NCBI GenBank assembly: GCA_964564245.1
Contig: CAZMAK010000008.1
Location: 6,235-60,686 of the forward strand
Source: an uncultured Ectothiorhodospiraceae bacterium
GTDB lineage: Bacteria > Pseudomonadota > Gammaproteobacteria > UBA9214
Direction of reading: 5' to 3'
Length of the DNA stretch: 54,452 nt
Both the position numbers and the translations under genes were made by a program. The notes under the pieces were generated by a model. That model was given only the letters and a program-made list of their open reading frames with translations, searched no databases and was not told the DNA's origin. Each line of letters opens with the position of its first letter. Position 1 is the stretch's first letter. Positions 32,625 through 34,531 of this stretch are shown in pieces.

Positions 32625-33182
32625 ATGACTGATGCGGCATCCACCCGGCACGTTCGCCACGTCCTGCTCGACGGCGGCCTGGCGGGTCTCGCCGACTGGT
32701 ACGCCACGCCGATGGCGCCCCGTCAGGTGGATGTGCTGCTGCCTGTCGTGGAGCATGCGGTCCAGCAGCGGTTGCGTGCCGGCGCGTGCTGTTTCGAGGC
32801 CCGGCTGCTGGGCCTGATCTGCCGCTGGTGGCAGCAGCGGGAAGTCCAGACCACCTGCGAGGAATTGCGGCAAACCGCGGCGTCTCCCCACCAGCTCGCC
32901 CTGCTGCACCTGATCTACGGCCAGTTGCTGGCCAGCCGCAAACTGGAGCCGGCGATGGAGTGGCTCGCCAGCGGGTTCCGGTACGCTGCCGGTCTGGTGA
33001 CGAGTGCGGAATATTTCCGGCTGCTGCGCCGTCACGAAGTGCTTGGCAGGCTGACGTTCGGTACCAGCCCGGCCGCGGCACAGGATCTGCCGGCGTTGCT
33101 GGCCGAGTCGGCCGTGATCGAGCGGTTGCAACGCGGCACCCGGGCAGGCTATACGCACGGGCACCTCGACACGCTGGGGTAG
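32625..33182 (+). CDS. Hypothetical protein, predicted alpha-helical
   Basis: 185-aa ATG ORF fills the gap between hemB and the symporter, host-like codon usage, 4 bp from the next gene; no family recognised. Confidence 0.75.
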   Translation: MTDAASTRHVRHVLLDGGLAGLADWYATPMAPRQVDVLLPVVEHAVQQRLRAGACCFEARLLGLICRWWQQREVQTTCEELRQTAASPHQLALLHLIYGQLLASRKLEPAMEWLASGFRYAAGLVTSAEYFRLLRRHEVLGRLTFGTSPAAAQDLPALLAESAVIERLQRGTRAGYTHGHLDTLG

Positions 33183-33186
33183 CCAC

Positions 33187-34143
33187 GTGCTGGCCTGGTT
33201 CGTCCGCGGCTGCCGCGTGGTTGCCAACCAGCTGGCACCGGTCACCCTGCTGGGGGCGATTGCCGCCTACCTGCATCCGCCGCTGTTCCTGGTATTCAAA
33301 AGTACCTTCCTGTGGTTCTTCGCCGCCACCATGTTTGCCATGGGGTTGGTGCTCGATGTCGGGGAGCTGCGTACCACGCTGCGACAGCCGGGACGGGTGG
33401 CACTGGGCGTGCTGACCCAGTTTACGGTCATGCCGGCACTGGGTTTCCTGGTCGCCATGCTGGCGCCGCTGCCGGAGGCCGTCCGGCTGGGTTTCATCAT
33501 CGTGGCCTGTGCGCCCGGCGCCATGGCCAGCAATGTGATGGTGTACCTGGCCGGCGGCCGGGTCGCCTACTCGGTCGCGTTGACCACGGTGGCTACCTTT
33601 CTCTCCCCGCTGGTGACGCCGCTGCTGGTGGAGTGGCTGGGTGGCGTGTTGCTGGACATCCCGTTCCGGCCGATGATGCAGACCATCCTCCTGACCGTGG
33701 TGTTGCCGTTGTGGCTCGGTATGTGGATGCAGCGTTTCCTGCGACAGCGCCACGACCTGACCCATGCAGTGGCGCCGGCCGTCGCGGCCATCGCCATCGT
33801 GATCATCTGCAGTTATGCCGTGGCCGCCAACCAGGCTCGTATCGCCCAGGTCGGCGCCTGGGTGGTCTCCCTGGTGATCCTGCTCAACGCGCTGGGTTAT
33901 CTCTGCGGCTGGTATCTGGCACGGCTGTACGGGTTTGACACCGGGTACCGCTTCACGCTGGCCATCGAGATCGGGATGCAGAACGCGGGTCTCGGGGTGG
34001 CGCTTGCCCTGCAGCATTTTTCCCCCGAGGCCGCCCTGCCGGGTGCCCTGTTTGCCTGCTGGTGCATCCTCACCGCAGCCGGGGCAAGTTCCTGGCTGCG
34101 CAATCGAGGCGGGATTTTGCTGGACGGAAAAACAACCATATAA
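33187..34143 (+). CDS. Bile acid:sodium symporter (BASS) family transporter
   Basis: MFAMGL, QFTVMP, CAPGAMASNV, EIGMQNAGL motifs; about 9-10 TM helices. Confidence 0.92.
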   Translation: MLAWFVRGCRVVANQLAPVTLLGAIAAYLHPPLFLVFKSTFLWFFAATMFAMGLVLDVGELRTTLRQPGRVALGVLTQFTVMPALGFLVAMLAPLPEAVRLGFIIVACAPGAMASNVMVYLAGGRVAYSVALTTVATFLSPLVTPLLVEWLGGVLLDIPFRPMMQTILLTVVLPLWLGMWMQRFLRQRHDLTHAVAPAVAAIAIVIICSYAVAANQARIAQVGAWVVSLVILLNALGYLCGWYLARLYGFDTGYRFTLAIEIGMQNAGLGVALALQHFSPEAALPGALFACWCILTAAGASSWLRNRGGILLDGKTTI

Positions 34144-34163
34144 AACATGTAGTTACAGATAAT

Positions 34164-34186
34164 TAACCACTAAAATCCGGTGGTTA
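34164..34186. promoter_or_regulatory. Inverted repeat directly upstream of the sigma28-type promoter (possible operator or hairpin)
   Basis: TAACCAC-N9-GTGGTTA, perfect 7-bp arms. Confidence 0.4.
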
Positions 34187-34193
34187 TTCTGCC

Positions 34194-34220
34194 TAAAGAA
34201 ACTATTCCCGGCGTCGATAC
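34194..34220 (+). promoter_or_regulatory. Sigma28 (FliA)-type promoter
   Basis: TAAAGAAA-N11-GTCGATAC versus consensus TAAAGTTT-N11-GCCGATAA; exact spacing. Confidence 0.7.
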
Positions 34221-34225
34221 TCTCA

Positions 34226-34358
34226 TCAAGAGCGCAGCGCAGATACACGCTGTGCAGCGGTCTTCAGCAAAGTTCCGGTTTTTTGTCAGTGCACAGGGTT
34301 TCAAGGCTCCTCCGACGCTGAAAAGCGTTTTCAACCCGCCGCAAGGCGGGTTTTTTTT
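34226..34358 (+). ncRNA. Candidate small regulatory RNA, about 130 nt
   Basis: Bounded by the sigma28-type promoter and an intrinsic terminator; no ATG or SD inside; hairpins at 34232-34255 and 34314-34329, U-tract, single-stranded CTCCTCC. Confidence 0.6.
34333..34358 (+). terminator. Rho-independent terminator
   Basis: CCCGCC-GCAA-GGCGGG followed by T8. Confidence 0.9.
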
Positions 34359-34379
34359 CCCTGCTGAATCCCGATATCC

Positions 34380-34464
34380 GGATTCCGGGCCACTGCGCGG
34401 CAACTGTCCCATGTGTTGCTCCACCTCCTGCATTCCTGCCGTCGTGCGCTTTGACCGGGATGAC
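34380..34464. repeat. Nested REP-like composite
   Basis: Minus strand GTCATCCCGG...[CGACGGCAGGAATGCAGGAGGTGGAGCAACACATGGGACAGTTGCCG]...CCCGGAATCC; family resemblance is from recall, and there is only one copy in the window. Confidence 0.5.
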
Positions 34465-34531
34465 TGGAACCTGTCTCCATAATCCCGCGCGAGGCGGCTT
34501 TTTCTTTCAGCTTGTCCGGAACGGGCAAGGT

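Follow-up and report, generated by a model that had tools for sequence, protein, structure and literature searches.

The window, a 54,452-nucleotide stretch of DNA from an uncultured Ectothiorhodospiraceae bacterium, carries a member of a real and conserved RNA family, new here, that is uncatalogued, linked to sigma-28 and, in relatives, fused to a 6S paralog. We favor, with confidence somewhat better than even, the reading that the locus is a conserved non-coding unit from which sigma-28 would transcribe an RNA of ~130 nt, that the tail of this RNA would block GGAGGAG-type ribosome-binding sites with Hfq, and that the unit shrank from a 6S–tail fusion. Sequence comparison supplies the conservation of promoter and tail, the 6S homology of the long form, the shared locus and the retention of the RNA in genomes without flhA.

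The RNA gene and its conserved tail

The RNA gene lies between a bile-acid:Na symporter gene (SBF, Pfam PF01758; 33187..34143, + strand) and a convergent pyruvate kinase gene (Pfam PF00224; 34532..36373, − strand), the latter a variable neighbor found at a minority of relatives' loci. All elements of the original prediction were recovered in place between these two genes. A predicted sigma-28 (FliA) promoter (34194..34220, +) consists of box TAAAGAAA at 34194-34201, an 11-nt spacer and GTCGATAC at 34213-34220; a search for a sigma-70 promoter at the locus found none. The predicted primary RNA, ~131 nt long (34228..34358, +), takes its start from the promoter spacing. It comprises a decayed 5' body (34228..34304, +) with a 5' hairpin within 34228-34264 and a U6 tract, a seed G-N-CUCCUCC (34305..34313, +; CTCCTCC at 34307-34313) complementary to GGAGGAG ribosome-binding sites, a conserved small hairpin with a GAAA tetraloop (34314..34329, +), and an intrinsic terminator with a U8 tail (34333..34358, +; GCAA terminator at 34333-34352). 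Its predicted fold is moderately better than that of shuffled sequences (z score of -2.4, with 3/200 shuffles equally good). The claim that the unit is non-coding was upheld by the absence of any ATG from the RNA; this absence, together with homolog lengths that vary out of frame, led us to reject a small protein. A 185-aa open reading frame without a Pfam match lies 5' of the symporter gene (32625-33182, +). Small inverted repeats at 34366-34389 and 34447-34496, between the RNA terminator and the pyruvate kinase stop, are possibly the pyruvate kinase gene's own terminator.

BLAST with the whole 261-nt region returned matches in 32/36 genomes of the genus; our genus set consists of the 30 loci returned, the window's included, 29 of them with upstream sequence. 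The seed–hairpin–terminator tail was invariant across 29/29 genus homologs, which were collected by whole-region BLAST and not by pattern. A 22-nt tail pattern occurred in 44/54 genomes of the order, including 25/26 good ones, with 2 matches for the reversed-pattern control, and it drew 100 stretches from the species collection, with Thiogranum, Thiohalobacter and Thiohalobacteraceae among the named records. A 3-mismatch scan of the class was mostly noise, and therefore only copies with hairpin and terminator were retained: 11 of the 401 class genomes lie outside the order and have copies that passed this inspection, and a twelfth carrier (G107) was found later. (The 401-genome tally and the 149-genome tally below take in the unpublished genomes G170 and G314.) The tail is thus present in several other gammaproteobacterial families besides the window's order. 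Since the species-collection, order and class members were collected by the tail pattern, tail invariance among them is partly built in. The G at position -2 of the seed is not in the search pattern and was kept in 108/110 members; the U-run was found in 110/110. The GAAA hairpin was 100% paired, with one compensatory pair within the genus and a change from A-U to G-C in distant copies.

A metagenome search with the tail pattern found a terminator-like U-run at 16/118 loci, one of them doubtful. Phage carriage was dismissed, as none of 4 viral matches had the terminator. Three records titled Halobacteria archaeon or Lysobacteraceae (L045, L079 and L084) carry this gammaproteobacterial RNA, and their titles may be mislabelled.

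The RNA had been proposed to belong to no known family, and this was confirmed: no Rfam family reached its cut-off in the window or at 20 homolog loci, and the weak matches were terminator-driven. RF02278, the best match, scored 23 bits in the window and at most 27.6 in homologs, against a gathering score of 50; scores for RF02278 and RF02837 spanned 16-28 bits versus cut-offs of 50 and 49.5. The literature searched, which consisted mostly of papers outside subscription, describes neither this family nor a 6S paralog driven by sigma-28 and ending in an antisense tail; supplementary tables of 6S and small RNA surveys could hold such loci.

The sigma-28-type promoter motif and the genes behind it

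The sigma-28-type promoter is well borne out by the relatives. The box was present in 29/29 genus homologs with upstream sequence, with a first half of TAAAG or TCAAG in 27/29. Family-wide it was found in 92/101 distinct copies with enough upstream sequence and in none of the reverse-strand controls, at a box score of at least 11 of 12 that was relaxed after variants had been seen. Its spacing is fixed although the body ranges from 86 to 232 nt. In the source genome (G000), the motif occurs at 17 sites with the 14-nt spacing, compared with about 1 expected; other spacings gave 0-3 sites, except for 6 at 15 nt. A matrix from 91 homolog promoters, trained without the window site, ranked the window promoter sixth in this genome and placed 22 of its top 25 sites between predicted genes. 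Behind these top sites lie pilT, pilin-like genes, a REC-REC-CheW pilus-chemotaxis operon, a cheY-cheA-like pair, a GGDEF protein gene and a flagellin gene (rank 23). The genes behind lower-ranked sites are presumably pilM, pilB, crp/vfr and rpoH.

The source genome carries both fliA and hfq, whose presence the original prediction had presupposed, together with csrA and a full flagellar cluster; a conserved predicted sigma-28 promoter and fliA, the combination expected of a sigma-28-dependent small RNA, occur in one genome. The fliA gene sits on contig C3 (L001, L188), far from the flagellar cluster, beside an flhG-like paralog and in housekeeping surroundings. In the order's 26 good genomes, FliA scored over the cut-off in 25, the RNA was found in 25 and flhA in 11. 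All 15 good genomes without flhA retain the RNA. Most of these assemblies are incomplete, but several that lack flhA consist of at most 20 contigs. Since within the order the RNA goes with FliA and not with flhA, and since the motif precedes pilus and chemotaxis genes, the label of a flagellar-regulon RNA holds for its conserved sigma-28 box but is too narrow in the word "flagellar". Near-universal FliA against patchy flhA suggests a pilus-centered sigma-28 regulon in the order. Distant carriers are mostly flagellated (11/12). In the carriers G018, G019, G008 and G203 flhA is apparently split or interrupted, fitting ongoing flagellar loss or assembly errors.

Two further elements lie upstream of the promoter. 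The 7-bp inverted repeat (34164..34186, unstranded; arms 34164-34170 and 34180-34186), which had been counted as part of the system, is present in the window and not conserved in the family: it is weak (P about 0.03 in shuffles), its arms are kept only in the window's copy and its two closest relatives, and a role as an operator is not supported. At 34143..34155 (+), 51 nt before the sigma-28 box, lies a putative IHF-like site. The motif was found in 24/40 short copies at a median offset of 53, compared with a shuffled mean of 1.0 and an upstream control of 0; it is possibly a relic of the sigma-54 promoter carried by long relatives.

Three body types at one locus

After removal of three rows (two truncated, one chance match), 110 distinct copies fell into three body types: short (44, including all copies of the window's genus here), GGA-rich (35) and long (31). 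All three types were found behind the same symporter gene. A symporter tree groups the copies by body type, with weak deep support and open deep forks. A sigma-54 box precedes the sigma-28 box by 44-62 nt in 15/31 long and 30/35 GGA-rich copies, the latter count following partly from the definition of that type, compared with 0/104 reverse controls; at the family's usual place, no sigma-54 box was found in any of 29 genus copies. Several genomes hold two or three family copies, with long and GGA-rich forms mixed (L037/L068/L095; L039/L071; L083/L125).

The symporter lies directly upstream in 28/38 short copies, 6/30 GGA-rich copies and 7/25 long copies. Its frequency before short copies, and the degenerate 5' body of the window's RNA, would suit a silent relic in which selection acts only on a conserved terminator of the symporter mRNA. 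We regard this as quite improbable: copies lacking the symporter upstream retain promoter and tail, in agreement with the original view of more than a symporter terminator, the window promoter ranks high in its genome, and the invariant seed and second hairpin are superfluous for a terminator.

ANGGA motifs number 4.5 per RNA in the GGA-rich form versus 1.0 in shuffled sequences, and csrA and a UvrY/GacA regulator are both in the source genome. The family might thus mainly titrate CsrA, with the window's copy a decaying Csr/Rsm RNA. This is very unlikely in our judgment, as short copies contain 0.65 motifs per RNA versus 0.49 shuffled and the window body, with zero GGA, lacks the multiple exposed ANGGA motifs of a Csr/Rsm sponge; even the motifs of the GGA-rich form do not stand out in predicted openness from the average of the RNA (0.41 vs 0.37), and no Csr/Rsm family of Rfam matched at the 20 homolog loci. 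A separate Csr RNA scan of the source genome gave repeats and no clear candidate. Many GGA-rich, REP-like intergenic repeats are present on its contigs C43, C1, C149, C5 and C65, and a related repeat follows the terminator at many homolog loci.

A divergent second 6S RNA precedes the tail in the long relatives, one of which is the cultured Thiohalobacter thiocyanaticus. RF00013 matched one long copy over its full model with 35.9 bits and a genome-wide E of 1.5e-5, and the match stops 29 nt short of the seed; this was the best score among long copies, below the gathering score of 46.4 bits, and the long copies among the 20 homolog loci scanned against Rfam gave no 6S match at E up to 1. A covariance model built from 6 ordinary 6S RNAs of related genomes (R1) matched 26/30 long copies tested, of which 24 matched across the entire model region with E < 0.005, and had no match at the RNA's place in 32 short or GGA-rich copies. 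A reverse model from the long copies (R2), not fully independent because these were aligned by R1, matched in 82/149 class genomes; most of the inspected matches lack the tail and the promoters, and they resemble ordinary 6S genes. The ordinary 6S gene is separate in the source genome and in 5/5 other carriers. Compensatory changes were found in 16/36 pairs of the long-form rod in a plain, unfitted alignment of 24 copies (0/500 shuffles), a test that kinship inflates; an earlier count of 44/51 was set aside, as its fitted and partly misregistered alignment inflates it. The central bubble is about 16 + 13 nt, compared with 14.5 + 12 in ordinary 6S copies. With rod, closing stem, central bubble, apical arm and covariance-model matches, the long body, judged by its sequence, is a second 6S RNA.

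In the excerpts of PMC11077062 and PMC8876501, 6S RNAs bind the housekeeping holoenzyme and can come in two copies, as in B. subtilis with 6S-1 and 6S-2. The long form resembles the 6S RNA (SsrS, RF00013) of these excerpts in its rod, closing stem, central bubble and apical-arm motifs, and it occurs beside an ordinary 6S RNA. Unlike that RNA, the long form is not at the usual locus, is preceded by sigma-28 and sigma-54 boxes, ends in a 3' seed–hairpin–terminator tail and scores below the Rfam cut-off; its apical arm is mostly ACUCCUGA, compared with AAGCCUGA in ordinary 6S copies.

Short copies retain the closing-stem arms of the long form (5' arm significant in 34/43, 3' arm in 23/43), and their stem shows compensatory changes in 10/27 pairs (1/500 shuffles). 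In the window's copy (L007), neither R1 nor R2 found a 6S rod and the closing-stem arms were not significant, so that this copy itself is not a 6S RNA. Its 5' body occupies the place of the long relatives' 6S-like RNA, or of the closing stem of most short relatives. The window locus is likely a shrunken descendant of a fusion between a 6S paralog and the tail, a descent that rests on relatives and synteny because its own body shows no 6S trace. In the favored reading, the window's order would have deleted the 6S core, most copies keeping the closing stem and the window's losing it too; we infer this direction, loss and not gain.

Genome G190 (L385, L156) contains an ordinary 6S RNA, a 6S paralog without tail, promoted by a sigma-54 box only, and a separate GGA-rich RNA with the tail; body and tail are therefore separable. 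L420 (G130) and L422 (G131) each show a second 6S-like RNA that ends in a terminator of its own; the seed tail is absent there, and neither a sigma-28 nor a sigma-54 box is clear.

One proposal, which we hold to be improbable, is that the long form is a 6S-type decoy for the sigma-28 or sigma-54 holoenzyme, that its synthesis by those sigmas gives negative feedback, and that cleavage sets free a 3' antisense RNA, such that one transcript would brake both transcription and translation. Later, lineages would have replaced the decoy by a CsrA sponge, separated the two parts (G190) or retained the antisense tail only (window).

Seed, candidate targets and related RNAs

An Hfq module consists of a terminator with a U-tail plus a preceding hairpin. 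The window's RNA has all three, with hfq in the genome. This layout is that of Hfq-binding base-pairing RNAs (excerpts of PMC10578931) and of the Burkholderia double-hairpin RNAs (excerpts of PMC5688073). The seed had been described as exposed. In the full-length RNA it is about half so (predicted unpaired probability 0.46), and the description fits a 60-nt 3' fragment (0.90). Across the RNAs folded, predicted seed openness was 0.83-0.94 in the 3' fragment versus 0.53-0.69 at full length, and this difference suggests that the RNA may be processed to free the seed.

The motif GG[AG]GG[AG]G stands at the ribosome-binding site of 38/2663 predicted genes in the source genome. The best target lead for the seed, still a weak one, is gacA/uvrY, which keeps the motif in 25 of the best 30 of 48 genomes' orthologs (symporter controls 0/37); the A-to-G changes within it leave pairing intact. 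Among more distant genomes, 5/15 carriers have the site versus 0/15 non-carriers, or 5/16 versus 0/14 with G107 as carrier; in an energy scan, gacA was 60th of 644. Within the order, glnA (29/30) and ftsZ (4/5) keep the same site; outside it, glnA was not discriminating (carriers 4/10, non-carriers 3/19), nor was ftsZ (1/10 and 4/18), and both were rejected as specific targets. As these two sites are not commoner in distant carriers, conserved strong Shine-Dalgarno sequences can mimic targets. A GGDEF gene and a radical SAM gene were discarded (site in 0/2 and 0/4 orthologs), and for an aldolase candidate no ortholog turned up in 5 genomes. The energy scan gave no site below -13 kcal/mol for flagellin, flgM or the pilin gene tested. 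Extending the seed into the hairpin was abandoned, with 0/15 one-mismatch complements at a start codon.

No target passed a clean test of carriers against non-carriers, the hairpin keeps its sequence and not just its pairing, and the tail sits on three different bodies. All this would fit a tail that is a protein-binding or processing/stability element, or the partner of one RNA (for example a GGA-rich Csr-type RNA), and not an mRNA seed. We consider this rather unlikely, though worth weighing. The tail persists on decayed bodies (the window's, L008 and L009) and G190 has a long-form body without it, so the tail is not needed just for the body; the sole perfect 12-nt complement in the source genome is the RNA gene's own opposite strand.

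Among known systems, the E. coli RNAs UhpU, MotR, FliX and FlgO share sigma-28 control (predicted here) and the 3' stem-loop and U-tail of Hfq-binding RNAs; in the excerpts of PMC10578931 they are UTR-derived and conserved among some Enterobacteriaceae. The window's RNA is by contrast stand-alone, apparently descends from a 6S fusion and persists in genomes that lack flhA, and neither Rfam nor the literature searched linked it to these E. coli RNAs. Campylobacter CjNC1/CjNC4 and CJnc170 (FlmR) are likewise stand-alone sigma-28-dependent small RNAs, and repress by 5' UTR pairing; they differ in being ~44 nt long, Hfq-independent in a reporter and directed at sigma-54 flagellar genes (excerpts of PMC4626219 and PMC11187230). 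The Betaproteobacteria toxic or double-hairpin small RNAs (RF02278) and anti-hemB (RF02837) resemble the tail in their CU-rich anti-Shine-Dalgarno stretch, two hairpins and U-tail, and one member of this type is processed from a longer RNA; they have two CU-rich stretches where the window's RNA has one, and belong to another lineage with another promoter (excerpts of PMC5688073).

The window's copy most likely acts like a sigma-28-dependent anti-Shine-Dalgarno small RNA. Sigma-28 would transcribe the ~130-nt RNA from the window promoter, trimming to a 55-60 nt double-hairpin form would free the seed, and the invariant 3' tail, presumably aided by Hfq, would pair to GGAGGAG-type ribosome-binding sites and repress translation. 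Its role may be in switching cells into a sigma-28 motile or piliated state; targeting of gacA/uvrY, a weak step, would tie sigma-28 to the Csr system.

The family illustrates how a base-pairing small RNA may emerge, or survive, as a 3' tail on a duplicated 6S RNA, the 5' domains being exchangeable at one locus. A sigma-28/sigma-54-promoted 6S paralog with an altered apical arm in the cultured Thiohalobacter thiocyanaticus Hrh1 makes 6S service to an alternative sigma factor directly testable. The finding further suggests that, in this order, a sigma-28 regulon of pilus and chemotaxis genes persists after flagella are lost.
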